The position numbers and the translations under genes were made by a program. The notes below the pieces were generated by a model. It had not been told where the DNA came from. It worked only from the letters and a program-made list of their open reading frames with translations, and did not search any database. This document shows, one piece after another, positions 4,917 to 64,000 of a stretch of 64,000 nucleotides of DNA (position 1 is the first letter of the stretch; each line of letters begins with the position of its first letter). This DNA comes from a virus. Lineage: Duplodnaviria; Heunggongvirae; Uroviricota; Caudoviricetes. The stretch lies in IMG/VR virus record IMGVR_UViG_3300048599_000194, positions 239,177 to 303,176 of that record. The stretch is one strand, 5' to 3'.

Positions 4917-5678
4917 TTAGTCGATGTGCAACAATGCTTCAAGTTCGCGAATGTCTTCTTTACTTGGTTCAGTCTTCATTATAGCCGTAAGGATCTTTGA
5001 CTTATAGCTATCGTCTCTCCCGATCCAATCTTCAAATACTTGGATAATCGTCTTGATATTGCACCAATATCCCTTTTCCATGTATTTCGAGATTCGATAG
5101 ATTTGTGCAATCGGGCAGTGAATATTTTTCACTGTTAGTATTTTCTTAGAATCGTCTCTAGGGAAATCCTTATCTGCAATTCCTTCAAGATTCTTCAATG
5201 TTTCATTTGTTATCGCGGCTCTTGCGATTGTAAAGTCAAAATTATTGAGAATGTCCTCGACATTCTCAGAAGATAATAGTACATGACCTTCATTTAGAGG
5301 TTTAATCAATTGAATGGGCAAAGAACCACCAAAAGACGAAAGCATTGTATTTGCGGCTTCTGAGGTTCTCTTCTCATAGTATCCAGCTTTCTTTAGTCGT
5401 AAAAGAATCGCTTGATATTGTTCATCACCTCTACAATAAATGTCAATATCTCCACATTCGACTGGATTCTTCACCGTCGAAACGCTGAGTCTAGCAAATC
5501 CACCGCAAATAAATCCATCTTCATGAATTATATTTTCAAAGAGATCCTTTAGCAATTCTTCATTGCGCTGAATCTTTAGATATACATAATCTTTAGACGC
5601 AGTGTACTTCAATTCTACCTTAGTGTCAGTGTTGTCTTTGCTGACTGCCTCTAGCTCTTGAATTAGTCCGTCACTCAT
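4917..5678 (-). CDS. hypothetical protein, possible minimal nucleotidyltransferase fold
   Basis: GG...(16)...DID segment resembling Pol-beta NTase signature; weak. Confidence 0.4.
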   Translation of the reverse strand: MSDGLIQELEAVSKDNTDTKVELKYTASKDYVYLKIQRNEELLKDLFENIIHEDGFICGGFARLSVSTVKNPVECGDIDIYCRGDEQYQAILLRLKKAGYYEKRTSEAANTMLSSFGGSLPIQLIKPLNEGHVLLSSENVEDILNNFDFTIARAAITNETLKNLEGIADKDFPRDDSKKILTVKNIHCPIAQIYRISKYMEKGYWCNIKTIIQVFEDWIGRDDSYKSKILTAIMKTEPSKEDIRELEALLHID

Positions 5679-8612: not shown

Positions 8613-8644
8613 AAGATACTACAAGAAAGGGGTCGTCGTCAACC
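8613..8644 (-). promoter_or_regulatory. promoter-like motif
   Basis: AAGATACTAC-N15-GTCAACC. Confidence 0.55.
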
Positions 8645-9024
8645 TAGCAGAAACTATCCCACCTCACTCCGTCAACCGAAAATTTAGAATTTCCGTTTTC
8701 GTCCGGAACTTCATTGATGTAGAAGGGATTGCATATCATAGTATCATATGATACAATGCGACGAACTTTTACAAAAGCCGCACGGAAATTCTTAAATTCA
8801 ATTTCAGTCATGAATTTAGTTATTTCTGGCAAATAATGATTTACGAAATACTGCCAATCTTCTGAATCAGCCAATAGAGTGTGATCACACAACTCGCCAA
8901 ATTCATAAACCTGCATTTTAGGTTCTAATGCGGAATTGTTATACTTATCAGTCTCAAATCGATTGAGATACTTAAGTTCACCATCAACTTTGGCACAAAT
9001 CGCGTACATGATTGTCTCCTTCAA
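8644..9024 (-). CDS. hypothetical protein
   Basis: 126-aa ORF. Confidence 0.5.
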   Translation of the reverse strand: MKETIMYAICAKVDGELKYLNRFETDKYNNSALEPKMQVYEFGELCDHTLLADSEDWQYFVNHYLPEITKFMTEIEFKNFRAAFVKVRRIVSYDTMICNPFYINEVPDENGNSKFSVDGVRWDSFC

Positions 9025-9040
9025 ACTTAAAATACTTTAC

Positions 9041-9472
9041 CTATTGCAACCCGTCACGGATTTCTTGTCGAATATGCATTAGAATTCTACCTAAGAAATT
9101 TCGACCAACTCCAGTATGTTTATTCACACCCCAGAACTCATCCCCCCAATCATTACCTTCTATTAATTCCTGATTTCCAGTCGCTAATAATTTACTTTGT
9201 AATTCCGGAATTGAGAATTTAATTCTGAGTACTTCAAACATTACACGAATTTTAATTCGATCCCAATCAGATCGTAGTTTAATAGATCTTGATTTCTTCT
9301 TCACATCGGCTGAACTATTTGTCGCACAGAATTCTTTCCATTTAAGGTCTTCTCTTTTTTCTGACATATATGCACATTCAGATGAACTGTATACAAAATG
9401 TCCATATGGTATTTCACATTTATAGAAATTAGACAAAAACCTATTACCCGGCGTGTGAAAATCGTCAATCAT
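9041..9472 (-). CDS. NADAR (YbiA-like, DUF1768) family protein, putative ADP-ribose-processing hydrolase
   Basis: FLSNFY...HFVYSSSECAYMSEK...LLATGNQELIE pattern typical of NADAR/YbiA. Confidence 0.6.
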   Translation of the reverse strand: MIDDFHTPGNRFLSNFYKCEIPYGHFVYSSSECAYMSEKREDLKWKEFCATNSSADVKKKSRSIKLRSDWDRIKIRVMFEVLRIKFSIPELQSKLLATGNQELIEGNDWGDEFWGVNKHTGVGRNFLGRILMHIRQEIRDGLQ

Positions 9473-9526
9473 ATCTTTATTCTAATTTAGCTCATGGCAA
9501 CCGTCAATATTTTCTAAATAAATCGT

Positions 9527-9913
9527 ATGCATCACACTGAACCCGTATTTGAATTGCTAAAAGAAGAACATCATCACTGCGGATGTGACGGCGATCATCA
9601 TTTTAGAGTTGAATGTGGTCGTGAGCATAGAATATATGGTGAAGATTTTCAATTTCTTCCAGGAGATTTCATTTACTGGGATTCAACTGAATTGAAATAT
9701 CTATCTGCGGTTGAGGGTAAATGCGACTTATTAGTATTGAGAGTAGATAGATATGGGACTTGGATCGAAGCCGCGAACATAGGGGAATTTAAGATTAAGA
9801 ATTTCACTTTGAAGGGTGCATTATATCTAAATTCACTTGGCGAATTAACAAATACACAAACGACCACTAAACTAGGGTTTATAGAAAATGGTCATTTGTA
9901 TCTAAACATCTAA
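9527..9913 (+). CDS. hypothetical protein (His/Cys-rich N-terminus)
   Basis: 128-aa ORF, one of three plus-strand genes. Confidence 0.45.
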   Translation: MHHTEPVFELLKEEHHHCGCDGDHHFRVECGREHRIYGEDFQFLPGDFIYWDSTELKYLSAVEGKCDLLVLRVDRYGTWIEAANIGEFKIKNFTLKGALYLNSLGELTNTQTTTKLGFIENGHLYLNI

Positions 9914-30170: not shown

Positions 30171-30578
30171 TCAGTACCAATATAGCTCAGTTAGCTCTGC
30201 TTTTGTTACATCTGCCTTTGGATCTCGTTCGTGTGTTGGGAAAAAATATATGCATGGATACATATATGATTCATTTTCTCCAGGGAAAACTTTTTCCTCA
30301 TAAAAATGAACGCCCGAATATTCAATGTGATATTTCTCGAATAAAAACTTAATAACGGCTCCGTAGCAATCGCATCCACTAACAACAAAACGGCTTTTCC
30401 ATTTGCTAGTTTCGTGCGAGTCAAATCGACCCCATCTAGAATGATCAATATCCCAAGGCTGAGGATCTGAAACAGAAAATACTACACCTTCGCCTCGACA
30501 AGTAGGGCACAAGTAAGGCTCCCCTTCCAAGTCATATAAGTAAAGTTCTCCATTACCTTTACAATCAGGACACTTCAT
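30171..30578 (-). CDS. hypothetical zinc-ribbon protein
   Basis: CPDCKGNG...CPTCRGEG Cys pairs. Confidence 0.45.
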   Translation of the reverse strand: MKCPDCKGNGELYLYDLEGEPYLCPTCRGEGVVFSVSDPQPWDIDHSRWGRFDSHETSKWKSRFVVSGCDCYGAVIKFLFEKYHIEYSGVHFYEEKVFPGENESYMYPCIYFFPTHERDPKADVTKAELTELYWY

Positions 30579-30961
30579 TGATCACACTCCATGTTAGCAA
30601 GTTCCAAGAGAAAATCTCCATGACATCTACTCGGTGAGCAATAACAGACAAGGTTCTTATCTCTTAATTCTATTTTAGCGCGTTTAATCCTGGAGGGGTC
30701 TTCTAGGAACCATTTAATGTATTTTTCTATCACTTCATCCCTGGTACCATCCTGCCCAATATGAAATGGATTGCCCCAATACGACCCACGCCCAATATAG
30801 ACTGCATCTTTAGGAACTCCATGCACATGTTTATTCAACACTCTAGGTTTAGATTCTCCCTTACCTGAACAACCTCTACAAGTACGATTTTCATATTCTA
30901 ATCCAGCCATGTCAAGATATATTTTTTCAAATCCACTTCCATTACAGATTTTACATTTCAT
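30575..30961 (-). CDS. hypothetical protein with GNPF and CYCSPxxCHGD motifs
   Basis: Start at MKCK; ORF-track N-terminus reads through terminator hairpin and is discarded. Confidence 0.45.
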   Translation of the reverse strand: MKCKICNGSGFEKIYLDMAGLEYENRTCRGCSGKGESKPRVLNKHVHGVPKDAVYIGRGSYWGNPFHIGQDGTRDEVIEKYIKWFLEDPSRIKRAKIELRDKNLVCYCSPSRCHGDFLLELANMECDQ

Positions 30962-30977
30962 CAAAACACTCCATGAA

Positions 30978-31005
30978 CAAAAAAAGGGAGAGGTTACCCT
31001 CTCCC
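30978..31005 (-). terminator. rho-independent-type terminator
   Basis: GGGAGAGG-ttac-CCTCTCCC followed by T7 on minus strand, just after flotillin stop. Confidence 0.65.
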
Positions 31006-31030
31006 TCATTATAACCTGTCTACCAGCGCC

Positions 31031-32968
31031 TTAGGCGACCTTAGCGCCCTTAGCCGCAACCCTGGGGTCTTGGACCTTGGCGGAGTCCTCCAGGATCTCA
31101 GGAACGGTCTTTCCAGTGGCCTGCTGAGATGCCAGCAAACCAAGGAACGACTCCGCCACACTGGTACTTCCATTGCCTCCACCCATGACAATATCAGGCA
31201 CGAGCTTGAGATTACCCTTAGATAGCTTTTCGGCTACCTGAATGGCGGCATAGTTAGACTGACCCATCGCATCAGTCTGCTTTCTGGTGACTTCTGCCTG
31301 TGCCTCACCTTCAAGCGTAATCTTTGCGGCATTCGCCTCAGCAATTAGCTTGATCGAATCGGCTTCATTGGTAGAACGGAGCTTGAGGGCCTGACCTTCG
31401 GAATCAGCCGCGATCTTTCGAGTCTCAGCCTCCGCCTCAGCCCTTGCAATCGAAACCTTCTTATTACCTTCAGCTTCGGCAATCGAAGCGGCGGCTCTCT
31501 GACCTGCAATCTTAACCGCCTGCTCAGACTGAACCACCTCTCGCTGGGAATCGGCAAGTGCAGTCTGACGCTCCTTCTCCTGACGCTTCTCTTCCAGCTT
31601 CATCTGCTGTTCAACCGTAATTGCACCTTCTTCGGCCAACTTACGATCCTGAAGAGTCTTCATCAACTCCGCAGGCGGCTTCATTTCACCAATAAAGGTT
31701 CCGACTCCAACCACATTGTATTCCGCAAGAGCCTTGGAAATATATTCCTGTGCGGCCTGCTGACGCTCCTTACGGGAATTAAAAAACTCCTTAGCGTCAA
31801 TAGACTGAACCGCATTTCGGAAATAGTTTCCGATCATAGGCTCAAGAACCTGAGAAACCAACTGCTTGACATTTCCGAACTGAGCGATGATCTTGGGTGC
31901 CTCGCCGTAAGGAATGTGAATAACCTGCTGAACCTCAAGGGGGAATGTGAATCCGTCCTTGGACTGCACAACAATAGTTCCGAGGTTATTATCTAGGCCG
32001 TGATCCTCATGCTTGTTATTGCTCCAGTTAAGAACAATAGACGAAGTCTGAACATTCTCAACCCGAATAACCGCAGGATTGTAGGGGTAAATACCTGGAT
32101 TCTTGATTACATTCCAGACGCCTCGGCATCCTTCGGCAACCAATTCACCATTCTTGAAAGTATCCCCGGAAACATCTTCTCCGCGAGGTCCAACCGCCGA
32201 AAATACAACTCCAACATGGGCCATTGGAACGGTGATCACATCCTCAATCTTGACAGAGGCAAACCAAGGATTAATAATCCATGCGCCAGATCGAAGAACC
32301 TCTTGCTGAAGACCTCTGCATCCCTTATTGATAATGAATGCCTGAGGATTCTGGAACGATGAGTGTCCATCAACATTAGGAGCGGCAACTTCGCCTTCAG
32401 GTAGTTCAATACCATCAAATGTAGTGACAACGCCAATGTTATTAGCCGGAACTTCAATAATTCGAAGCTGATGCGGCTCAAGTCCAAAATTCTTGCAATT
32501 CTGGGAAGTAATGACAGTGAATAGCGCAGTATTAATGCGATATACACCAGTGGTCAAAACATCAAGTTGCTGACCCTTACATCCATTATTGGTAATGAAT
32601 GTGCGTCCATCCTGGTAGGAATTAGAAAACACACTATCACCAAATCGACGCCCCTTGGGAACCTCTCTACCGTCATTGGCAATCACCAATGCAATTTCAC
32701 CCTTAGGGACTGCGACTAGATTAACCTTATCAACGCTATACTGCCACGGCCAGTAGAAAAAGTGCCATCCCGGAGCGAGAGTATCAACCTGAATACCTGC
32801 CTCACCTTCAAGCGCAACAATTCTACCGTTCTGAAGACTCTTACCGAAGTTCTTCGAAACAATACCCACCTTATCCTCGTTAATGATAACGAGTCCAATC
32901 GCCCATCCAAGGAATGCAATTCCTACAATAGCGACAAGTGCAATGATTCCAATCATGAGAAGACTCAT
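31031..32968 (-). CDS. flotillin/SPFH (band-7) family protein
   Basis: N-terminal TM then SPFH region; C-terminal Ala/Glu-rich coiled-coil repeats typical of flotillin/YqiK; 3' third is GC-rich (~58%). Confidence 0.65.
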   Translation of the reverse strand: MSLLMIGIIALVAIVGIAFLGWAIGLVIINEDKVGIVSKNFGKSLQNGRIVALEGEAGIQVDTLAPGWHFFYWPWQYSVDKVNLVAVPKGEIALVIANDGREVPKGRRFGDSVFSNSYQDGRTFITNNGCKGQQLDVLTTGVYRINTALFTVITSQNCKNFGLEPHQLRIIEVPANNIGVVTTFDGIELPEGEVAAPNVDGHSSFQNPQAFIINKGCRGLQQEVLRSGAWIINPWFASVKIEDVITVPMAHVGVVFSAVGPRGEDVSGDTFKNGELVAEGCRGVWNVIKNPGIYPYNPAVIRVENVQTSSIVLNWSNNKHEDHGLDNNLGTIVVQSKDGFTFPLEVQQVIHIPYGEAPKIIAQFGNVKQLVSQVLEPMIGNYFRNAVQSIDAKEFFNSRKERQQAAQEYISKALAEYNVVGVGTFIGEMKPPAELMKTLQDRKLAEEGAITVEQQMKLEEKRQEKERQTALADSQREVVQSEQAVKIAGQRAAASIAEAEGNKKVSIARAEAEAETRKIAADSEGQALKLRSTNEADSIKLIAEANAAKITLEGEAQAEVTRKQTDAMGQSNYAAIQVAEKLSKGNLKLVPDIVMGGGNGSTSVAESFLGLLASQQATGKTVPEILEDSAKVQDPRVAAKGAKVA

Positions 32969-33244: not shown

Positions 33245-34006
33245 TTAGAATGTGAAACTCTGACCCTTTGTGACAAATCCATTAAATCCATCTGCGATTG
33301 CATCCGGCTTATCTCCCGGCTGATAATGGTAAAGCCACATCTTAGATTTGGTATTCTCAGGGAGATTCTTCAAATCAGAATAATGTGCATGCACTCCGCT
33401 CTTGAATGGTGCAGTTTCACTATCATGGAAAATGACATCTGCCATATCATAAAACTTAGTCAATTGATTTGGAGCAAACTGAGTATCTCCGGTGAAGAAA
33501 ATAGTTGGCGCTCCGACCACCATATCTTGAATCATGTAGCCGTAAGACTCAACGATCTTAAATCCATTCATGACATGAACCGTCTGAACCGGACGGAATT
33601 GAATTCCTTCCCATTCAAAAGTCTCATTAGGGCTGACAAGATTAAGTGGAAAATAATCTTCCAACTTTAGCATCTTACCTTCGACCGATTCAAGGCCACC
33701 TGCAAGGGACTTATTCCAAATATCATGGAGAAGACTACCAACTCCATACAATTCAGGTTTACGACCAGGAACAAAGTATCGAGAGAACGCCAACCACTCA
33801 ACACCACCACAATGATCTGCATGTGCATGAGTAAGAGTAAATGCGTCAATGTCCTTGGCAGACAGACCCAATTCAGCAAGACCGAATCGAGCATCTCCAC
33901 CAATATCGATTAGGAAATTCTTACCATTCTTCTTCACAAGAAGATTGGATTGATAGTATTCCTTGGTAGTAAATGCACTACCACAGCCGACAAATTGAAG
34001 TTCCAT
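33245..34006 (-). CDS. MBL-fold metallo-hydrolase
   Basis: THAHADHCGG (HxHxDH) motif; AAGGAG SD. Confidence 0.65.
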   Translation of the reverse strand: MELQFVGCGSAFTTKEYYQSNLLVKKNGKNFLIDIGGDARFGLAELGLSAKDIDAFTLTHAHADHCGGVEWLAFSRYFVPGRKPELYGVGSLLHDIWNKSLAGGLESVEGKMLKLEDYFPLNLVSPNETFEWEGIQFRPVQTVHVMNGFKIVESYGYMIQDMVVGAPTIFFTGDTQFAPNQLTKFYDMADVIFHDSETAPFKSGVHAHYSDLKNLPENTKSKMWLYHYQPGDKPDAIADGFNGFVTKGQSFTF

Positions 34007-34820: not shown

Positions 34821-35627
34821 TTACGAAACCACTTCAGGAGGCATTGCATATCCGTCCATTTGCGGAACAAACTTAAAGAAATATCCTTTATCTTGTGAGA
34901 GAATCGGACCTTCCTTATCGATCTTCCAGCCACTCTCATCACGAACCACGAATGCTCCACGCTTACAATCGGTCGGATAATCATTCCAATTCTGACCAGC
35001 TTCCACAATCATGTCGTGTAGTTGTGGGATTTTCTTCGACTGTAGCTTTCCGTGACTATATAGAGCGCGAGCAACCATCTGAACCGAGTTCTTAGAAGCA
35101 TCGTTCTGACGCCAAAGAACTGCGTTGTAGGCTTCCCAGCATTCCGAAACAGTGTATGCCCGAGAATCAAAGTGCGCCAACTTCATCTTGGAAATGAAAT
35201 CGTTAATTTCATCTCGACGGTAATCAAGATCAAACTCAAAACTATCATGAATGCACTTCAATAACCACCGTTTGTTGAATTCAGCAGTTGCAATTGCCGC
35301 AGAAACAGAAACCATCTTCTGAAGATTTCCGTCGAACCATTGAGCGGTTCCTCGCTCATCAAAGTCGGTGAGGATCAAAGTGATCTCATCGCTCTGAGTA
35401 TATCCAATCTTGACATTCTGGATATTCTCACAGAGCGCCAAGGTAGTCGCCTGCATGCAATCCATCAAACTTCGATCAAATGGCTTCTCACATCCACGAG
35501 TGAAAGTGTGAAATGACTTTCCGTCGAGTCGAATAATCGTGTAAGTGCGACGAGGAAGATAGTACCGAGTACGATCTTCGTGCATCTTCATCCGATCTCC
35601 GAGAGAATCCTTGCTATTCATAGACAC
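34821..35627 (-). CDS. Thg1-like protein (tRNA-His guanylyltransferase family)
   Basis: RLDGKSFHTF...EKPFD...VKIGYTQSDEITLIL matches Thg1 core RxDGxxFhxF / GQSDE region. Confidence 0.6.
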   Translation of the reverse strand: MSMNSKDSLGDRMKMHEDRTRYYLPRRTYTIIRLDGKSFHTFTRGCEKPFDRSLMDCMQATTLALCENIQNVKIGYTQSDEITLILTDFDERGTAQWFDGNLQKMVSVSAAIATAEFNKRWLLKCIHDSFEFDLDYRRDEINDFISKMKLAHFDSRAYTVSECWEAYNAVLWRQNDASKNSVQMVARALYSHGKLQSKKIPQLHDMIVEAGQNWNDYPTDCKRGAFVVRDESGWKIDKEGPILSQDKGYFFKFVPQMDGYAMPPEVVS

Positions 35628-35644
35628 ACCTCCAGTTTCTTAGT

Positions 35645-35675
35645 AAGATACTATGAGTGGCACCCATCGTCAACA
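35645..35675 (-). promoter_or_regulatory. promoter-like motif
   Basis: AAGATACTAT-N14-GTCAACA upstream of Thg1-like gene. Confidence 0.55.
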
Positions 35676-35690
35676 ACTAAATACAAATTA

Positions 35691-36398
35691 ATGAGCACTT
35701 CAATTAAAATCAGACCAATAATAGAAAGCAATGATAGTAATAAATGTAAATTGCACGTTTTTCATCTACCATGTTCTAACACAATCAAATTAAATATATG
35801 TGATTCTTTAGAATTTTACTCAGATGTAGATCTTCCGTTCGTAATCGATCCTGATTCAGATATTCAAAGCATGATTAATTTCTTCGAAATGTTATGTTCT
35901 AACTATAGGGCAAAACTATCAGAATTAAATGAACTAATAGAAAAATACAATACAGAATCTACAGAATATAGCAATGATCTAATACATAACTTATTCACAC
36001 TATTGAGAATTGTTAAGCAAGGTAGAGCACATTCAATTGAATTCTCTGCAGGTCTTGAAAAAATAATAAAAGAATATAATTCAACGAAATTGAATGAATA
36101 TTTTATTGACGTTACTGAAATTCAATCCGAATTTGAAATTCTAGCTGAAATGGTAACTGATACAGTGGAAATGGTATCTCATTTGAATGAAAATGATACA
36201 AATAACTTAATGAAAAAACTAACAAAATATACTTTAATATTCACCCCATTAAACTTGTTAGCTGGAATGGGTGGAATGTCTGAATGGAGCACATTTGTCG
36301 CATATGCTGGATTAGGTGGATTCTGGGGTTATATATTGTTCGCAATATTATTAATTATTATTGGAATATCAACCTCATATTATTTCAGAACTAAGTGA
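35691..36398 (+). CDS. CorA-like transporter-family protein, truncated, with variant GMS in place of GMN
   Basis: C-terminus LIFTPLNLLAGMGGMSEW + 2 TM + YYFRTK resembles CorA TM1-GMN-TM2; plus strand; start at first Met after minus-gene overlap. Confidence 0.5.
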   Translation: MSTSIKIRPIIESNDSNKCKLHVFHLPCSNTIKLNICDSLEFYSDVDLPFVIDPDSDIQSMINFFEMLCSNYRAKLSELNELIEKYNTESTEYSNDLIHNLFTLLRIVKQGRAHSIEFSAGLEKIIKEYNSTKLNEYFIDVTEIQSEFEILAEMVTDTVEMVSHLNENDTNNLMKKLTKYTLIFTPLNLLAGMGGMSEWSTFVAYAGLGGFWGYILFAILLIIIGISTSYYFRTK

Positions 36399-42170: not shown

Positions 42171-42172
42171 AG

Positions 42173-42255
42173 GGTGTAAGACGGGACTCGAACCCGCAAG
42201 CCTCTCGGCACCAGAGTCACAGTCTGGAATGTTTACCAATTCCATCACCTACACC
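42173..42255 (-). tRNA. tRNA-His(GUG) with encoded G-1
   Basis: Cloverleaf; anticodon loop CUGUGAC; extra 5' G pairs with C73; T-loop TTCGAGT. Confidence 0.8.
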
Positions 42256-42261
42256 ATTAGG

Positions 42262-42600
42262 TCATCTGTAGAGGCACATATGACACCCATGATCTCCATT
42301 TCGATAACCTCTACGGCAAAGAAATGAATACAGGTTGTCGTTCAATATACTCTCAACAAATACAACTCTCGAATATTTATCTGCGAGCTTCTCGATTTCA
42401 TCTAGAAATGAAGAGAAGTATCCCTCTCCGCGAAATTCCTCAACAATTTCAATAGTTGCAAGATCTATTGTATTCCTCATTTGGCCTTCGATTAACCTCT
42501 GAGTTATACGATAGTAGAGATTAAGATGATACTCAGGAAGATAGATCCACTTATTGGTTCTACCACCCAACTTCAACTCATTCTCTATGGCATCAATCAT
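42262..42600 (-). CDS. hypothetical protein (possible GNAT-like)
   Basis: 112-aa ORF; weak resemblance only. Confidence 0.4.
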   Translation of the reverse strand: MIDAIENELKLGGRTNKWIYLPEYHLNLYYRITQRLIEGQMRNTIDLATIEIVEEFRGEGYFSSFLDEIEKLADKYSRVVFVESILNDNLYSFLCRRGYRNGDHGCHMCLYR

Positions 42601-42609
42601 CGTGTATGT

Positions 42610-42640
42610 AAGATACTATGTATGACCTTGTACGTCAACC
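42610..42640 (-). promoter_or_regulatory. promoter-like motif
   Basis: AAGATACTAT-N14-GTCAACC. Confidence 0.55.
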
Positions 42641-42646
42641 ACCTTT

Positions 42647-43144
42647 TCACATTCTATAAATCAAAATTCCAATTTTGAACTCGTGCGGAATTTCAAACTT
42701 CTCCAATACATTCTGCAGATGACGAATCTTCGCAGTATTGTGAATGTCCAAAACAGGAGAATCATACACCCCAAACGTATCGCACATGGAATGTACTTCG
42801 ATGGATTCGCATTCTTCTTCACAGATGTAAATGTGATCATGCTTCACATATCGATGACCTCGAAATTCGGTCGTAATGTTGGTATACGTGTCGAAAAACT
42901 CGTCTTCAGATCCAAATTCATGGAGAAACTCATCCACCTCATCGTAGCAGGTACGCTCAATCTTAGTTTTTGTAGTATACTCCACCTTAGGGGCACCACA
43001 CATGGAACAGAAAGCTCCATCTCCGGACTTCTTATCTCCATGAACATTACACTTAAGTCGAACTTCGAACTTATCTTCTCCAGGTACTCGCATATCTGGA
43101 ACGATAATCATAGGTCCATTGTGAACGTAACAAGAATATCCCAT
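42647..43144 (-). CDS. hypothetical protein
   Basis: 165-aa ORF. Confidence 0.45.
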   Translation of the reverse strand: MGYSCYVHNGPMIIVPDMRVPGEDKFEVRLKCNVHGDKKSGDGAFCSMCGAPKVEYTTKTKIERTCYDEVDEFLHEFGSEDEFFDTYTNITTEFRGHRYVKHDHIYICEEECESIEVHSMCDTFGVYDSPVLDIHNTAKIRHLQNVLEKFEIPHEFKIGILIYRM

Positions 43145-43172
43145 CGTATCCTCCTAGATTTTAGTGTACTAG

Positions 43173-43204
43173 AAAGATACTACGAGAGCCTTAAAATGTC
43201 AACC
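43173..43204 (-). promoter_or_regulatory. promoter-like motif
   Basis: AAGATACTAC-N15-GTCAACC. Confidence 0.55.
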
Positions 43205-43207
43205 GCC

Positions 43208-43774
43208 TCACTGCTCCGTCTTACACTTACATGCATCTTTGGCTAGAAACGATGCTCCATTCGAGATCAGATTAGCCAATTCACGCTTGCTCATGGGGAT
43301 GTCAATGACGCCTGCCCCTGGGATGTTGATTGACACGATAGCCTCTAAATCGTCGCCTGGAGCCTCTTCTGCCGCTTCCTCTACGGATTCTTCGGAGTCC
43401 TCCGCCTTAGTTCCAGGAAGCTCGAAGTGATATGCGCCTTCAAACCACTCAAGATACTCATCAACAATATCCTCAAAATCAGACAATTCAGAGTAAATAA
43501 CAGTTTCTGGGTCTAATTTGAGTGAGAAATTAGTATATAGGATAGCTTCCTGCGCTTGTTCTCCAACTAGAATTGGCTGGCGATTATATCCCTCAGGCAT
43601 CTCAAATTCCTGAAAGTATTCACGAACGGTGTTATGTTTTACAAACACTCCACTAGTACGAACAATCTGAGTGACGTTATATGCAGTAAAAGACTTTCCT
43701 GCATCAACCAACATCTCAACAACGGTCGCAATATTCTGGACGATGTCCTCATTAGTTAAAATCAAATTACTCAT
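43208..43774 (-). CDS. hypothetical acidic protein
   Basis: 188-aa ORF. Confidence 0.45.
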   Translation of the reverse strand: MSNLILTNEDIVQNIATVVEMLVDAGKSFTAYNVTQIVRTSGVFVKHNTVREYFQEFEMPEGYNRQPILVGEQAQEAILYTNFSLKLDPETVIYSELSDFEDIVDEYLEWFEGAYHFELPGTKAEDSEESVEEAAEEAPGDDLEAIVSINIPGAGVIDIPMSKRELANLISNGASFLAKDACKCKTEQ

Positions 43775-43991
43775 TCTCAGTTTTCTCCTTGTTTATTTCT
43801 CTCACTAGTTCAGTCATCTGCTTTTTTTGACTTTTCGTCATAGAGCCGATGATCATCATTAAGTCCACTGGAGGTGGAGGCTTAAACATCACAATATCAT
43901 TCTCGACCCACATTTCGACACCAATTGATTTGATGTGATATAAAAGACTAAGTATGACATTCGTACTCTTTCCATTATTACGCATGCTCAA
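43767..43991 (-). CDS. hypothetical protein
   Basis: 74-aa ORF. Confidence 0.4.
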   Translation of the reverse strand: MSMRNNGKSTNVILSLLYHIKSIGVEMWVENDIVMFKPPPPVDLMMIIGSMTKSQKKQMTELVREINKEKTENE

Positions 43992-45264
43992 ACTCCACCA
44001 AGTACGTTAGGTTAGCTTGATTCACATTATATACAATCATTTCATTATTCTGAACTCCAGACTTACCGCCTACTGCGTAAGTGGAATCATAGCCCTTCAT
44101 TGGAAGATTAGAAGATGATCTGCTAGGAGTATATGCCTTACCCATTGCAACATCTGCCAAGAACATGAAACAATTATTATTGCGCCCTTTACCACTATGC
44201 CAATAACCTGTAGCATAGTTAAGCGACTTTGTGGATTGATCACTGAAATACAATCCATCTCCAAACATTCTACCACATACATGAGGCGCATTTGATCGAG
44301 GGATTACTAGACCTTGTTTCAGAATCGAAAGCACATTAGAAATCTGAGTTCCATGCCAATACTCATTGACATTACCAAGTTTCTTCGCCACTGGCTCAAA
44401 TCGAATAGTAGTTTCTGGCATCTGAACTTCAAACACTCTAAACAGCTTATACGCAGATGAAGAGTGAGAACGATTCAAGGTACTCTTGAACTTTTTCTCG
44501 ATTCTATCAATCACCTTCTTATCAGCGACCAAATTGAGAGATACGTTAAAAATCTTAGGAGTCTCTATATTCTCCACTTCAACAACAGTATCCACCTGAG
44601 AATTGACCATTAGGAGAGACGCTTCGAGCGAATCAAGAATCGAATTCTGCTGGAGAATATCTGCATCTGAAGTGTATAGTTGATCGGGACGGATGCGCAT
44701 CCCAACATTCTGAGGAATGAATGTCAAATACTTCTGAAGCATCTCATGATACTTCGAATCTTCAAACTTCTTTGCAAGAATGAAGTCAGACATAGAAATT
44801 AGGAGTTTTCGCGCAGAAGTGATAGAATTCGAGGATACTATTCCAATCGGAGTACTGAAAAGTCCAGTATCCACGTTATACGTCATCGTAGTAGATGACA
44901 GAATTTCATGGACGTTCATCTTCGCCAGTTGCTTAATCAAATCCCCGACTACCGAGGAATTCGAACCAATCTGAGATACCGCAACGCTCTCCAATGTTGT
45001 GCTTGGGGCAACAGAAACAGATTTACCTGTTTCGATCACATCCTGCTTAACATATCCCTTTGCTTCCTTGGATCTCATTTTTGAGTGAGCCGCTTGAAGA
45101 CCTTTATCATGCGATCCAAAATTCTTGGTGGTCGAATCACCTGCGTATCCAATCCGACCCCATTCAAAAACAACATTTCCATCATCGTGAACGGTGTATT
45201 TCCAGAACTTATTATTGTTTCCTGAAATATTGGTCAAGGTTAATGTTGCAGTTTCAAGTACCAT
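43978..45264 (-). CDS. PARP-like ADP-ribosyltransferase (WGR domain + PARP catalytic domain)
   Basis: N-terminal WGRIGYAGD (WGR); C-terminal YWHGTQ..N..SIL, GRMFGDGLYFSD..SKS..Y, NNEMIVYN match the PARP H-Y-E signature blocks. Confidence 0.65.
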   Translation of the reverse strand: MVLETATLTLTNISGNNNKFWKYTVHDDGNVVFEWGRIGYAGDSTTKNFGSHDKGLQAAHSKMRSKEAKGYVKQDVIETGKSVSVAPSTTLESVAVSQIGSNSSVVGDLIKQLAKMNVHEILSSTTMTYNVDTGLFSTPIGIVSSNSITSARKLLISMSDFILAKKFEDSKYHEMLQKYLTFIPQNVGMRIRPDQLYTSDADILQQNSILDSLEASLLMVNSQVDTVVEVENIETPKIFNVSLNLVADKKVIDRIEKKFKSTLNRSHSSSAYKLFRVFEVQMPETTIRFEPVAKKLGNVNEYWHGTQISNVLSILKQGLVIPRSNAPHVCGRMFGDGLYFSDQSTKSLNYATGYWHSGKGRNNNCFMFLADVAMGKAYTPSRSSSNLPMKGYDSTYAVGGKSGVQNNEMIVYNVNQANLTYLVEFEHA

Positions 45265-45350
45265 TTTCGCCCCTGAATCTATTATAGCATTTTCACGCTA
45301 TGTTGACGTTCTTTGATCGCATTACACACAGCTAATTACAGAAAATCAAA

Positions 45351-45422
45351 TTTCCCCCACAGGATTCGAACCTGTATTCGCGGGACCAAAACCCGCTGTC
45401 CTGCCAATTGGACGAAAGGGAA
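45351..45422 (-). tRNA. tRNA-Gln(UUG)
   Basis: Cloverleaf; anticodon loop UUUUGGU; U1-A72. Confidence 0.75.
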
Positions 45423-45542
45423 GTTAGGATTGGCATGTCCAGTAGGGATTTCACCTACACTGCAGAATCGTCATCCTGACACCTCTAAGCCGAGGCCGCT
45501 ATCATATTCACCCTAAACAGGTCATTTTTGCGTATGGACAAA

Positions 45543-45615
45543 TGCACGATGAGGGACTCGAACCCACGGTGTTCTGCGTGTAGGGCAGATGCTTTAGCCG
45601 CTAAGCTAATCGTGC
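45543..45615 (-). tRNA. tRNA-Val(UAC) (C33 instead of U33)
   Basis: Cloverleaf; anticodon loop CCUACAC; one T-stem mismatch. Confidence 0.55.
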
Positions 45616-45741
45616 ATGGTGACATGGCTAAACCGAAATTCCATGTCGTAAGTTGAGCCGTTATACGGTATAGCTCATCTATTTTTTGAGAGGTTGCAGT
45701 GCATCCACCAAGAACCCACCTCACAAGAATGGGGATGTTCA

Positions 45742-45823
45742 ATTAAAATAGACCGCACAGGACTCGAACCTGTCATCTAGGAGTGTCCACCTAAGCATTG
45801 CCCAGAATGCTCCACCGCCTATC
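45742..45823 (-). tRNA. atypical tRNA-like element (class-II-like; 5' acceptor not resolved)
   Basis: Perfect T-arm ACAGG-TTCGAGT-CCTGT, extra arm, anticodon-like hairpin GCATT-CUGGGCA-AATGC; no partner for 3' acceptor strand. Confidence 0.3.
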
Positions 45824-45825
45824 TA

Positions 45826-45896
45826 ATTGAAGTTGGGACGAGAGGATTCGAACCTCTGTTAACCGAGTCAGAGTCGGCCTTCCTGCCACTAGAAGA
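45826..45896 (-). tRNA. tRNA-Gln(CUG)
   Basis: Cloverleaf; anticodon loop CUCUGAC; U1-A72. Confidence 0.75.
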
Positions 45897-46018
45897 CATC
45901 CCAAGTAAACTGCGCGGAATTCCTATTATCTCATCTTCAGTCTCGGTATTCGCCCCCGATTAATCTGAATACTCCTTCATAGGCGGTTTCGAATTCGTGT
46001 TCCCGCTGACACGCACCT

Positions 46019-46228
46019 TCAACTTACTGTTAATTGTTCCGTCATACTGGTCGATGATCTATATATTAACTGACCTCCATTACTACAGTTTCTAATAACT
46101 CCGAGTCGATATGGAGATGTTCTAGTGAGTTTTAACTTAACGTCACATTCAGAACAGTATCCAGTAGACTCATATGGATCATACGAATTCAACGTACTGA
46201 TTTCTTCTCCGCACATTGGACACTTCAT
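46019..46228 (-). CDS. small zinc-ribbon protein
   Basis: 69-aa ORF with CPMCGEE...CSEC. Confidence 0.4.
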   Translation of the reverse strand: MKCPMCGEEISTLNSYDPYESTGYCSECDVKLKLTRTSPYRLGVIRNCSNGGQLIYRSSTSMTEQLTVS

Positions 46229-46388
46229 TATTTCCTACTTCCCGCATTCACATGGTTCTTTTCCACATCCAGGGCATAAACCCTCTCTTAGTCTCTTATG
46301 TATCTTACATTCTGCAATCGTATCGAATCGAAACGGTCTGCCGTTAATATGAGATGTTCCATCGAGATCCGTCTCTTTTCCAGTTGTT

Positions 46389-46544
46389 CTAGGCTTCCGA
46401 TTCATTCAACAATTCCTCTAATTCTTTTTTCATTCGAATACGAGTCGATCCAGTATCTCGTTCCCTTGGGTCATATGGATCATCGTTAGCACCATATGGT
46501 TTCATTTTAGGTGGAGCGTGTCTTGTTGGCTTATTTCTTTTCAT
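46389..46544 (-). CDS. small hypothetical protein (51 aa)
   Basis: Read by eye; below ORF-track cutoff. Confidence 0.25.
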   Translation of the reverse strand: MKRNKPTRHAPPKMKPYGANDDPYDPRERDTGSTRIRMKKELEELLNESEA

Positions 46545-46563
46545 ATTAACTTCCTTTACTTAG

Positions 46564-46647
46564 TACCGGAGGAGGGACTCGAACCCTCACGCCCTTTCGG
46601 GCAACGGATTTTGAGTCCGTCGCGTCTACCAATTCCGCCACCCCGGC
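46564..46647 (-). tRNA. tRNA-Leu(CAA)
   Basis: Class II cloverleaf; anticodon loop CUCAAAA; resembles E. coli Leu tRNA. Confidence 0.8.
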
Positions 46648-47035
46648 ATCATGGAGTTGAGGGAAATCGAATCCCTGTCCTAAACAGCTTCAAAAAAGAC
46701 ATCTACAAGTTTAGTTTCTATTTTAATCTCACAGAATCAATCGTCTAAAAACAAACTAGAGATTCTGCCAGTCCATTAATCTCGGTTACATGCATGAACT
46801 ACTTTGCAACCTATCCAATATGTTGAACGCTTGCGACTATTATGGAATTTCGTCGTAGCGCCTCGCCGTTACTTAAGCGGCGAGAGCGTAAGAGTAGGAC
46901 TCTTCTGCATTTATTGTTTTCAGGTTTTTACGAGGCCACCTGACCCTCGACTTGCATTCTCATTCTACCCTATTCAGTCGAAACCTTTACAACCCCTTAA
47001 TCCCTTAAAGCGTCAAGTCACGATTTAAGAGAAGT

Positions 47036-47118
47036 GCGCAAGGAGGGACTCGAACCCTCACGCCCGAAAGGGCACTACCACCTCAAAGTAGCGGGTCTAC
47101 CAATTCCCCCACCTGCGC
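47036..47118 (-). tRNA. tRNA-Leu(GAG)
   Basis: Class II; anticodon loop UUGAGGU. Confidence 0.75.
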
Positions 47119-47122
47119 ATAT

Positions 47123-47311
47123 TCACAAATTCAATTCTTTCAAGAATTCTCTCGAAATTTGACGACTACGTCTAATTTCTTCTTCAGTTATTGGAGTTTC
47201 TCTAACAGATTCAGATCTTATTAATCCATTTGAATATCTAGAATTTTCTTCATGTCTTTTCAAGATTCGATCAATTTCTGACATTCCATCATTTTCGTCA
47301 ATGTCGCTCAT
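47123..47311 (-). CDS. small acidic protein (62 aa) between tRNAs
   Basis: Start with GGAGGG SD; longer ORF-track version would overlap a tRNA. Confidence 0.4.
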   Translation of the reverse strand: MSDIDENDGMSEIDRILKRHEENSRYSNGLIRSESVRETPITEEEIRRSRQISREFLKELNL

Positions 47312-47328
47312 CAATATACCCTCCAGAG

Positions 47329-47412
47329 TGCGCAAGGTGGGACTCGAACCCACACGCCCTTACGGGCACCAGATCCTAAGTCTGGCGCGTCTACCAATTC
47401 CGCCACTAGCGC
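47329..47412 (-). tRNA. tRNA-Leu(UAG)
   Basis: Class II; anticodon loop CUUAGGA; U-U at 5-68. Confidence 0.75.
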
Positions 47413-56110: not shown

Positions 56111-56214
56111 TGGGGGAGGCCGGATTCGAACCAACGATCAAGAAGTCGGACCATTGTCTGCTGACGCATTGACTGGCACTGCCTCTTAGCTTTAAGCCTC
56201 TAAGCTACTCCCCC
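56111..56214 (-). ncRNA. oversized tRNA-like RNA (104 nt)
   Basis: Perfect acceptor GGGGGAG/CTCCCCC, canonical D-arm GCTT-AGAGGCTTA-AAGC, T-arm with two G-U pairs; ~48-nt multi-hairpin insert replaces anticodon arm. Confidence 0.35.
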
Positions 56215-56402
56215 ATTTTCCTGAAATCCTACCAGAAAGTGCCGTTTCTAGATAACGACTAAAGATTAAAACACCTTTCTAGCATTTCTCATTCTGACAA
56301 TCTTTCTTGTTGCAAAATGAGTTTTTCGACTTTCCTATTATTCAAATAAGAGGATTGAAAAACAAAGACTGAAAACAACCACTAGTCTAGGATTTCAGGA
56401 AG

Positions 56403-56475
56403 CTGGGGATGCAGGGATCGAACCTGCGACGGGTTGGTTAACAGCCAACTGCTCTACCTACTGAGCTAATCCCCA
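56403..56475 (-). tRNA. tRNA-Asn(GUU)
   Basis: Cloverleaf; anticodon loop CUGUUAA; U1-A72. Confidence 0.8.
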
Positions 56476-56704
56476 ATTTAGTCACAACCCCTGTTTCCAG
56501 AGGCCAAATTAATGTACTTCCTAAATGAAGTTAGAGGGTTCGATGCCTTTATTCATTTAGTTTTCGAAAGTCGTTTTCGTTCGATTTGATGAGGTATTTG
56601 CAGATCGTAAACCGACTGCCAGAGCCTACCCGACTTACTTTTTCGAATGTGGATCCATATCCGTGCCTAAAATCGACAAAGCACTACATTCTAGAAGTAC
56701 AAGT

Positions 56705-56777
56705 GGACACATGTGGGATTCGAACCCACGACATCCTGCGTGCAAGGCAAGCGTTCTACCAACTGAACTAATGGCCC
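56705..56777 (-). tRNA. tRNA-Ala(UGC)-like with mispaired acceptor stem (possible pseudogene)
   Basis: D, anticodon (CUUGCAC) and T arms fold; acceptor has 2 mismatches. Confidence 0.4.
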
Positions 56778-56963
56778 ATTTCAAATGTTCGGAGTTTCCT
56801 GCAATCTTTTTAGAATCTAGACATTGCAATATCGTTGATTCCTGTTAGTGCAGTTTTCGTCTAATAGTCCGAGGGATTAGTGGACTTCAAAGACTTTTTC
56901 GAGTTTCTATACAAAGATGCCGGAAATTTCCCCCGAACGACCTTAACTCTAGAAACTCCGAAG

Positions 56964-57035
56964 TGGAGAAGATGGGACTTGAACCCACAACAATCTGCTT
57001 GCAAAGCAGGCGCTCTACCATTGAGCTACGACCCC
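56964..57035 (-). tRNA. tRNA-Ala(UGC)
   Basis: Anticodon arm CCTGC-UUUGCAA-GCAGA like E. coli alaT; G3-U70 present; two acceptor mismatches. Confidence 0.6.
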
Positions 57036-57198
57036 AGCAACTAATTGTCGATGACCACTACACCAAAATACCTTTCGAGGGGCTATGAGTAGTGTCTTTC
57101 GCTGTTTTGTTTGGTTCCTAACAGTACCTCATGTTTTTCGGATTGCATTTCTGCTAGATTCTATAGCCAAAAAAAGAATCTTCCTAGTCATCGACAAA

Positions 57199-57272
57199 GT
57201 GTGCAAGGGTGGACTCGAACCACCGACCTTCTCCGTATCAGAGAGACGTTCTAACCAACTGAACTACTCGCA
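57199..57272 (-). tRNA. tRNA-Ile(GAU)
   Basis: Cloverleaf; anticodon loop CUGAUAC. Confidence 0.8.
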
Positions 57273-57356
57273 CATTAACGGTTCCAGAGGGAGGACTACC
57301 TCCTATCCAACTAGCTATCTTGGAATTATTCACGAACATTGAATTCGTCTCTGAAG

Positions 57357-57432
57357 TGCCCCAGGTCGGACTCGAACCGACCACCTTTGGATTTTCAGTC
57401 CAACGCTCTGACCTCGTATGAGCTACCGGGGC
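57357..57432 (-). tRNA. tRNA-Phe(GAA)
   Basis: Cloverleaf; anticodon loop CUGAAAA. Confidence 0.8.
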
Positions 57433-57560
57433 ATTGAGTCTTGATGTGTATTTGGCTGACTCTTCGCCATATGTGATGCACATCTCACCTTGCAACATCT
57501 ACCGATTATCTATTGCACGTTCTTTATCAGATTCTTTCGAATCATCCTCGGAAGAAGCAG

Positions 57561-57632
57561 AGCACTGAGTGGGAGTCGAACCCACGTCTTCAGATTGGAA
57601 ATCTGAGATAATAGCCGTTATATGACCAGTGC
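57561..57632 (-). tRNA. tRNA-Gly(UCC)
   Basis: Cloverleaf; anticodon loop UUUCCAA; U73. Confidence 0.8.
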
Positions 57633-57646
57633 ATTGACTATCACAG

Positions 57647-57720
57647 TGCGTTAGGAGGGAATTGAACCCCCGACCTAGAGCTTAGAAGGCTCCCGCTCTA
57701 TCCAACTGAGCTACTAACGC
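57647..57720 (-). tRNA. tRNA-Arg(UCU)
   Basis: Cloverleaf; anticodon loop CUUCUAA. Confidence 0.8.
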
Positions 57721-62888: not shown

Positions 62889-64000
62889 TTATAGCGCCTT
62901 AGTACGCTTCTCCACCTCTTCCATATATTTTTCCAGAGCGAGCTTCTCGTTTACTACCTTCTTAGTGTAAATTGCCACAATTAGCATTCTCTGAGCATCT
63001 CCAAGTGCCTTACCCATGTAGCCTTTATCCATCAGCCACTGAGAATCAATGGCCAATTCTTTATTGCTCAATGGAACTCCATTCAGAGATTTCAATTTAT
63101 TAAGCAGTTCAGAATCATTCATCGAATCAGCCGCATCTTGCATATATTGGAGATAATGTCTATTTTTGAACATTACATTCAAAGCATCCATTGTCTTCAA
63201 CATGCGAGCCAAAGTAATTGCATGAGATACTTCAGTTGGTAATTTCAGCTTGGTATAATCTCCACCGTTCAGAAACAACAATATCAGATTAACTACGAAC
63301 TTATCTCCCTTCACTAGCGAAACTTTCACTGGAATGAAATTTTGACCGAAAATATGCTTTCCAAGACCAGTTTCATTGAGTAAATCAATGATTTTTTCAT
63401 TAGAATGAAATTTTCCCTTAGTGAAAGCCTTCTTGAATTCCTCAAGAATTCTCTCGCCCGTGATATTATCGATTAGTCCAACATTTTCCTTGATAGCTTT
63501 CAAGGTTTCAGGTTCAATTTCAAATCCAAATCGATTTGCGAACTGAATTGCTCTAAGCATTCTCAAAGGATCTTCAGAGAAACGCTCCTTTGCATCTCTA
63601 ACTGCCTTAATTCTGCCCTTTTTGATGTCTTCAATACCGCCAAACGGATCTATGTATTCACCGGTTTCAACATCCTTCGCAATTGCATTGAAGGAAAGAT
63701 CACGACGGCTCAAATCAGCTTCGACTGATAGCGAAGGATCTCCAAAAGTCTGAACATCATCGTGTTTCCCAGATCCGCCGTATACTTCGGTACGAGGAAT
63801 CGCAAAATCATAGGGTTCTTCAGAACCATCAATGATGGCCTTAATGACCTGCATCGATTCTCCAACTCCAGTAGATACGATCTTATCTGAAATTGTAGAT
63901 AATGCCTTCTTAAGATCATCAAATGCAACATTTGTAACCAAATAATCAATATCCTTGGACTTTGCTCCGAAAATTTCATCTCGAACAACTCCACCAACTC
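62889..64000 (-). CDS. cca: tRNA nucleotidyltransferase (CCA-adding enzyme, class II head domain), 5'-partial at window edge
   Basis: Same frame continues to window end and encodes VGGVVRDEIFGAKSKDIDY (GGxVRD...DxD); downstream RRDLSFNAIA and DPLRMLRAIQFANRFGF motifs. Confidence 0.7.
   Translation of the reverse strand, partial: VGGVVRDEIFGAKSKDIDYLVTNVAFDDLKKALSTISDKIVSTGVGESMQVIKAIIDGSEEPYDFAIPRTEVYGGSGKHDDVQTFGDPSLSVEADLSRRDLSFNAIAKDVETGEYIDPFGGIEDIKKGRIKAVRDAKERFSEDPLRMLRAIQFANRFGFEIEPETLKAIKENVGLIDNITGERILEEFKKAFTKGKFHSNEKIIDLLNETGLGKHIFGQNFIPVKVSLVKGDKFVVNLILLFLNGGDYTKLKLPTEVSHAITLARMLKTMDALNVMFKNRHYLQYMQDAADSMNDSELLNKLKSLNGVPLSNKELAIDSQWLMDKGYMGKALGDAQRMLIVAIYTKKVVNEKLALEKYMEEVEKRTKAL

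Follow-up and report, generated by a model that had tools for sequence, protein, structure and literature searches.

A stand-alone NADAR-domain protein of an uncultured jumbo phage and its candidate role as an AdfN-like eraser of base ADP-ribosylation

The 64-kb stretch of DNA analyzed here, referred to as the window, belongs to a jumbo phage of about 306 kb. Its GC content is 39.7% and almost all of its genes lie on the minus strand. At 9041-9472 the window carries what its unbroken reading frame and profile matches identify as a real, intact gene of the NADAR superfamily. The gene and the features that surround it are as follows.

9041..9472, minus strand: NADAR-domain CDS, 143 aa, stop codon included; the core domain alone without an N-terminal extension
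9479..9507, minus strand: sigma-70-like promoter candidate, TTGACG-17 nt-TAGAAT, 10/12 matches
8644..9009, minus strand: 121-aa ORFan, 31 nt 3' of the NADAR stop codon, with its own AAGGAG ribosome-binding site
8631..8644, minus strand: weak terminator-like hairpin closing the two-gene unit, followed by a T-rich stretch; found by a consensus scan
9527-9913, plus strand: conserved 128-aa gene directly upstream of NADAR, with a His/Cys-rich N-terminus

The NADAR ORF runs from an ATG at 9472-9470 to a TAG stop codon at 9043-9041. The motif pattern on which a preliminary description of this DNA had relied is present in the translation well beyond chance, with FLSNFY at residues 12-17, HFVYSSSECAYMSEK at 25-39 and GNQELIEGN at 99-107. 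The NADAR/YbiA-like family proposed there was borne out by a Pfam profile search, in which NADAR (PF08719) matched the 143-aa protein with an E-value of 7.4e-22 and 78.8 bits (gathering score 35.1). The match spans residues 9-139 of the protein and positions 9-163 of the 163-position profile. The protein also matched PHROG 1017 (1e-37) and, among PDB sequences, Escherichia coli YbiA (2b3w, 1.2e-12) and a Phytophthora NADAR (8bau, 3.5e-9). In a six-frame hmmsearch of the window, the NADAR locus scored 8.5e-62 and the runner-up 0.12, and no second NADAR was found within the 64 kb. Among 5.8 billion proteins searched, 142 homologues were found at E≤1e-10. Near-identical DNA was absent among GenBank phages, suggesting that the phage has no close cultured relative.

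The length of the protein matters for its interpretation. The open frame begins just three codons 5' of the ATG, so this ATG is the sole start that gives the full domain. In the public JGI annotation the identical gene, on a 306,252-bp contig, is called as a 108-aa protein (P0008) that starts at M36, and the calls P0008, P0013, P0014 and P0122, for this NADAR and several orthologues, all begin at M36 and are shortened to 108-114 aa. A start at M36 removes both FLSNFY and E32 from the protein. Since the N-terminal 35 residues are conserved to the same degree as the remainder, the 143-aa reading is correct and the shorter public calls are not. The true start was likely missed in those calls because a Shine-Dalgarno sequence is absent there.

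To the full-length protein we transferred the residue roles described by Schuller et al. 2023 (PMC11543638) through a HMMER alignment to 8bau, the structure of PnNADAR. In PnNADAR, E43 positions the ribose, K50, R79, W89, R93, D130 and W133 contact the pyrophosphate and E125 is the catalytic acid (PMC11543638). The equivalent residues of the phage protein are E32 (E43), K39 (K50), R62 (R79), W70 (W89), K74 (R93), E105 (E125), D111 (D130) and W114 (W133). K74 replaces R93 of PnNADAR; the other residues are identical. Across 102 aligned homologues, no variation was seen at E32, K39, E105, D111, F5, L13, S14 or N15, while W70 and W114 are kept in at least 90%; the ligand-contacting and catalytic set as a whole, R62 included, is thus unchanged or almost so. 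The conserved catalytic residues expected from the preliminary family call are thus all retained in the alignment.

An AlphaFold2 model of the protein, which rests on the homologue alignment, reached a mean pLDDT of 97.3 and predicts a YbiA-like alpha-helical core flanked by small beta-sheets. In Foldseek, the model aligned to YbiA (2b3w) with a TM of 0.86 and to PnNADAR (8bau) with a TM of 0.81, and no unrelated fold scored better than E=2. Comparison with orthologues on related metagenomic contigs gave dN/dS values of 0.05-0.09, rough figures because dS is saturated, which point to strong purifying selection on the gene. The conservation of the catalytic set under such selection favors catalysis over mere binding.

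The NADAR superfamily comprises four groups: NADAR proper, YbiA-type, DarG1 and the T4-type phage NADARs (PMC11543638, PMC12945103). DarG1 proteins have a catalytic Asp, an N-terminal extension and an adjacent DarT1, and the T4-type proteins have a His (PMC11543638, PMC12945103). The phage protein begins only 11 residues ahead of FLSNFY, and the ORFs neighboring NADAR, like the conserved neighborhood in its relatives, showed no ART or DarT domain. The glutamate at position 105, the missing N-terminal extension and the missing adjacent ART together indicate that the protein is neither of the DarG1 nor of the T4 type.

DarG1, as represented by the E. coli C7 and G. lovleyi (8bat) proteins, shares with the phage protein its superfamily and the expected hydrolysis of guanine-linked ADP-ribose. 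The proposed reaction is common to both, with the phage as its user here and the host as its user in the case of DarG1. The phage gene, however, has no neighboring DarT1, and its product lacks the beta1-beta2-alpha1 N-terminal extension and has E105 where DarG1 has a catalytic Asp (D171 in E. coli C7). In addition, the Foldseek TM of our model to G. lovleyi DarG1 was only 0.50 and the family profile fails to detect DarG1. An antitoxin of the DarG1 type was rejected on these grounds. Gp30.3 of T4, the AdfN of that phage, is likewise an orphan core-domain NADAR that a lytic phage uses in counter-defence. It differs in that His replaces Glu in T4-type proteins (PMC11543638, PMC11825919), whereas E105 is retained here, and in that full activity of the T4 protein requires other T-even factors. 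BLASTP with the phage protein gave no match to T4 gp30.3 at E up to 10, and the T4 type was also rejected.

The closest experimentally characterized relative is instead AdfN of phage Bas32 (bas32_0066), with 42% identity over 139 aa and an E-value of 4e-36. In BLASTP, Bas32 scored 108 bits and YbiA 63.5 bits. The best GenBank phage match is a Nitrincola phage protein (49% identity), and a homologue of phage IME392 is 38% identical. A neighbor-joining tree, crude in that it has no support values and leaves out archaeal references, placed the phage protein together with those of Bas32, the Nitrincola phage, IME392 and CM1, with YbiA branching outside. These sequence comparisons place the protein closer to AdfN-Bas32 than to the other characterized NADARs compared, and in the same broad clade. 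Both are stand-alone phage NADARs of about 145 aa without an N-terminal extension, both have a Glu-type active site and both genes lie amid genes of nucleotide and DNA metabolism. On the model for the YbiA equivalog (TIGR02464, cut-off 73.7), the two proteins are alike in scoring below the threshold, with 64.1 bits for the phage protein and 66.3 for Bas32, whereas E. coli YbiA scored 169.5. On the model for the DS32_2 NADAR of anti-phage defence (NF053876), the phage protein scored 52.9 bits, below the cut-off of 240. The differences from AdfN-Bas32 are in 58% of the residues and in the phage itself, Bas32 being a T5-like siphovirus and the present phage a jumbo phage of about 306 kb.

YbiA is the top structural match and is 33% identical to the phage protein. 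It shares the core fold with its N-terminal beta-hairpin and has Glu at the E125-equivalent position. It differs in that the phage protein falls under the TIGR02464 cut-off and lacks the LexA or rib context, and in that YbiA lies outside the neighbor-joining clade that contains the phage protein.

The arrangement upstream of the gene suggests how it may be expressed. The gene upstream of NADAR is on the opposite strand, which means that NADAR needs a promoter of its own. The best promoter-like site of the region, TTGACG-17-TAGAAT, lies in the 54-bp gap upstream of NADAR, and no other such match in the window directly precedes a start codon. In three related metagenomic lineages both hexamers are kept and the spacer between them differs; it is on the consensus match and this conservation in three lineages that the promoter is proposed. 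The candidate -10 box ends 6 nt short of the NADAR ATG and no Shine-Dalgarno sequence was found upstream of this ATG, which would imply a leaderless or near-leaderless transcript made by the host RNA polymerase. Early deployment of NADAR would fit this arrangement.

The 121-aa ORFan was found directly downstream of NADAR in all relatives examined (L012-L015), and it is probably co-transcribed with NADAR given its position and strand. The two genes possibly form one transcript of the host RNA polymerase, which may be leaderless. The terminator-like hairpin at its end has a 5-bp stem with 3 GC pairs, and 2 such sites were found in the region against 0.8 expected, so that it is at best a weak candidate terminator. 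In the search of 5.8 billion proteins the ORFan had just 5 protein clusters, all from the same lineage. It matched no Pfam or PHROG family, and its AlphaFold2 model (pLDDT 40) was unusable. It could be a lineage-specific partner of NADAR.

Gene order around NADAR is conserved in relatives L012-L015 (65-88% identical). It reads RNase T-like exonuclease, WDGH, a 140-aa ORF, the opposite-strand 128-aa gene and NADAR, followed by the 121-aa ORFan, a 226-aa ORF, a metallophosphoesterase, DUF5661, R2K ATP-grasp, a Gad2-like gene and a DHH phosphoesterase. The MazG, exonuclease and phosphoesterase neighbors of NADAR resemble those of the Nitrincola phage NADAR, and NADAR lies in an accessory region alongside Apyc1-like and Gad2-like genes. 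The opposite-strand 128-aa gene matched no Pfam family. In two relatives, L014 (6222-9945, minus strand) and L015, a fibre-like protein of about 1,050-1,095 aa adjoins the 128-aa gene on the same strand. Its repeats are of the YadA-head, collagen-like and beta-roll kinds, and the window lacks this protein.

The activity of the Bas32 protein provides the basis for a functional proposal. Bas32 is Escherichia phage Bas32/IrisVonRoten, and AdfN stands for anti-DarT factor NADAR (Johannesman et al. 2025, PMC11825919). AdfN-Bas32 neutralizes DarT1 in uninfected E. coli and allows RB69, T5 and Bas25 to form plaques again on DarTG1 hosts, while the thymine-directed DarTG2 is unaffected by it (PMC11825919). 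Of the two proteins, it is that of Bas32 for which anti-DarTG1 activity has been demonstrated. With moderate confidence, we propose that the protein described here is a stand-alone, AdfN-like NADAR N-glycosidase that would clear ADP-ribose from nucleobases to undo a DarT1-like host defence. We infer in this proposal the enzymatic activity, the substrate, the timing of expression and the counter-defence role. The suggestion in the preliminary description that the protein is an anti-defence factor is the best-supported reading of the gene, owing to its 42% identity to the DarT1-neutralizing AdfN-Bas32; as that description had coupled it to a phage ADP-ribosyltransferase as well, its interpretation as a whole is supported only in part.

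According to this proposal, the host RNA polymerase would use the sigma-70-like promoter of NADAR to transcribe the gene, probably at an early stage, and the mRNA may be leaderless. The protein would bind the ADP-ribose moiety through K39, R62, W70, K74, D111 and W114, and E32 would position the distal ribose. E105 would then drive hydrolysis of the N-glycosidic bond between ADP-ribose and the nucleobase, predicted to be guanine at N2 and perhaps cytosine. ADP-ribosylation placed by a host DarT1-like toxin on phage DNA, and possibly on RNA, would thereby be erased and replication could resume. Cytosine is considered a possible further substrate because Glu-type NADARs remove both G- and C-linked ADP-ribose from DNA and RNA (PMC12945103, PMC11833690). 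YbiA and T4 gp30.3 are active in vitro yet do not rescue DarT1 toxicity (PMC11125620), so hydrolysis of guanine-linked ADP-ribose in vitro does not predict protection in vivo. An identity of 42% to the Bas32 protein may also leave room for another substrate.

Several other features of the window bear on alternative roles for NADAR.

30575-31009, minus strand: DUF4326 protein (1.2e-23), with an N-terminal CXXCXGXG zinc-finger-like segment
36375-36770, minus strand: borderline DUF488-N3a protein, 27.0 bits, equal to the cut-off
42172-57720, minus strand: translation-RNA array of 40 tRNAs (ARAGORN, all 20 amino acids) and a tmRNA
46649-46996, minus strand: tmRNA, Rfam 189.9 bits, with the tag AEESYSYALAA
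42172-42254, minus strand: tRNA-His, unusually long at 83 nt
34821-35627, minus strand: Thg1-like tRNA-His guanylyltransferase (5.6e-29)
62889-63941, minus strand: CCA-adding/poly(A) polymerase-like enzyme
54898-55503, minus strand: ORF with an SGGxDS PP-loop motif, inside the tRNA array
43978-45264, minus strand: eukaryote-like PARP, 428 aa, with WGR (2e-16), regulatory (2e-6) and catalytic (2e-31) domains

The protein might act on soluble molecules derived from NAD+ or ADP-ribose rather than on modified nucleic acid, either by degrading immune signals or toxic ADP-ribose derivatives or by binding ADP-ribose to block an NADase effector. Iyer et al. argued that, for the most part, phage NADARs target soluble derivatives of ADP-ribose and not macromolecular adducts (PMC9503650). 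They predicted that DUF4326, of the rhodanese-phosphatase clade, processes ribose-linked phosphates of ADP-ribose, noted that it is often found with NADAR, Macro and SLOG domains, and linked both DUF4326 and DUF488-N3a to the processing of ADP-ribose (Iyer et al. 2022, PMC9503650). The window encodes both of these as well, the latter at borderline score, but they lie 21-27 kb from NADAR and are neither fused nor adjacent to it. For one phage NADAR-like protein, a Retron-Eco1 study cited in PMC11825919 reported an effect that does not depend on catalysis. In the present case, however, the full catalytic set is kept and is under selection. The phage protein of the Retron-Eco1 study is reportedly T5 U56, which binds ADP-ribose. 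To our knowledge, cleavage of a soluble immune signal has yet to be demonstrated for any NADAR. The nearest tested homologue, moreover, works on DNA adducts (PMC11825919). On this evidence we regard a role on soluble ligands as rather unlikely.

Alternatively, NADAR might shield RNA rather than DNA by stripping ADP-ribose from the G or C bases of tRNA, tmRNA, rRNA or mRNA after modification by an ART defence or toxin directed at RNA. The investment of the phage in tRNAs and the activity of NADARs on RNA make this plausible. NADARs reverse ADP-ribosylation of RNA guanosine, and members of the Glu-type NADAR and YbiA groups that of cytidine as well (PMC11833690, PMC12945103). The window has 40 tRNAs, a tmRNA and Thg1-like and CCA-adding-like enzymes, and Iyer et al. 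found NADAR genes in early regions beside RNA-repair functions (PMC9503650). Against this, NADAR is 33 kb from the tRNA array and its tested relatives were assayed only on the DNA-directed DarT1. We know of no phage defence that ADP-ribosylates G or C bases of RNA, and consider this role quite improbable. Two observations on the array itself may be added. A 104-nt Rfam tRNA match at 56111-56214 was not called by ARAGORN and may be intron-bearing or atypical, and the PP-loop ORF is probably the source of a PF01171 match (4e-34) in the window.

The presence of a PARP in the same window raises two further possibilities. With its WGR, regulatory and catalytic domains and visible WHGT, GLYFSD and NEMIVY motifs (H-Y-E), the ORF at 43978-45264 is by its sequence a genuine PARP. 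Homologues were found in just 17 GenBank phage records, the best being those of Xanthomonas phage XacN1 (39%), Xoo-sp13, Stenotrophomonas phages CM1 and RAS14 and three Klebsiella phages. No recognizable ADP-ribose hydrolase is encoded by its immediate neighbors. There is little chance, in our estimate, that NADAR, PARP, DUF4326 and DUF488-N3a make up an ADP-ribose circuit that edits the phage's own marks or shields its 40 tRNAs and tmRNA. Such a circuit, if real, would have a role beyond the known anti-DarT1 repair of DNA.

The second possibility is that NADAR is the eraser partner of the PARP, for self-immunity or as part of a regulatory cycle, as the preliminary description had suggested in proposing that NADAR regulates a PARP-like ART of the phage. 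The PARP is real, and since Macro, PARG and ARH domains were all missing from the ORFs of the 64-kb window of the approximately 306-kb genome, NADAR is the sole recognizable ADP-ribose hydrolase there. Co-occurrence was examined by tblastn with a chimeric PARP+NADAR query, with the whole CM1 genome and with the CM1 NADAR as a query. A NADAR is also present in XacN1, Xoo-sp13, CM1 and RAS14, the four phages whose PARPs are closest. The two genes, however, are 35 kb apart here and 111-205 kb apart by record coordinates in those four phages, and NADAR is missing from the three Klebsiella phages with a PARP. A NADAR was found in at least 489 phage records and a PARP homologue in 17. Since about 48% of medium and jumbo phages contain a NADAR domain (PMC9503650), its co-occurrence with PARP is as chance predicts. 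In vitro, the NADARs tested, of which the enzyme named is the DarG1-type E. coli C7 NADAR, left phosphate-linked ADP-ribose in place on the ends of DNA and RNA, also where PARP14 had modified them (PMC11833690).

A different role is suggested by YbiA, namely that of a housekeeping N-glycosidase that clears reactive riboflavin intermediates (5-amino-6-ribosylaminouracil derivatives). YbiA is the best PDB match by both sequence and fold, the key residue E105 is the Glu of the YbiA type, and relatives are labelled 'ribA/ribD-fused uncharacterized protein' in source databases. The protein nevertheless scores 64.1 bits on TIGR02464, under the cut-off of 73.7, and groups with AdfN-Bas32 and not with YbiA. 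Furthermore, no ORF of the 64-kb window has a Pfam domain of riboflavin synthesis (RibA/RibD), and riboflavin damage control would be of no evident use to a lytic phage. The sub-threshold score and the absence of rib genes from the window led us to reject this role as very unlikely. Finally, a functional pairing of NADAR with the PARP is rejected as very unlikely, as the two genes co-occur in one Xanthomonadaceae jumbo-phage group but are always unlinked, and three Klebsiella phages have the PARP alone.

The NADAR family, its chemistry, its presence in large phages and the use of orphan antitoxin-like members in counter-defence have all been published. The phage protein is an uncharacterized NADAR of this known anti-defence enzyme family from an uncultured jumbo-phage lineage. 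What is added here is the corrected gene model, which lengthens the protein from 108 to 143 aa and regains E32, and a conserved promoter-like element at the start codon, a candidate for leaderless early expression. Further additions are the conserved pairing of NADAR with an ORFan in one unit and the evidence that speaks against a link to the PARP. If the proposed AdfN-like function is true, this jumbo phage would have an eraser of base ADP-ribosylation and the anti-DarTG1 NADAR clade of the Bas32 type would reach an uncultured lineage of phages of about 306 kb and their relatives. The host population would then be implied to use DarT1-like or other base-modifying ADP-ribosyltransferases.

Other genes of the window are unusual as phage cargo.

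24919-27051, minus strand: 710-aa protein with a GHKL/HATPase domain
31031-32968, minus strand: 645-aa SPFH/Band-7 protein
35580-36398, plus strand: CorA-like Mg2+ transporter-like ORF, on the opposite strand

Two additional ORFs were noted on the minus strand. The first, at 33245-34006, has a metallo-beta-lactamase fold with an HxHxDH motif and is probably the source of a Pfam Anti-Pycsar Apyc1 match (2.5e-29). The second, a 253-aa protein at 4917-5678, had no match in the Pfam copy used; it is 80% identical to a relative with the precomputed Pfam label Gad2 (Gabija anti-defence). By these resemblances, both are candidate anti-defence genes.
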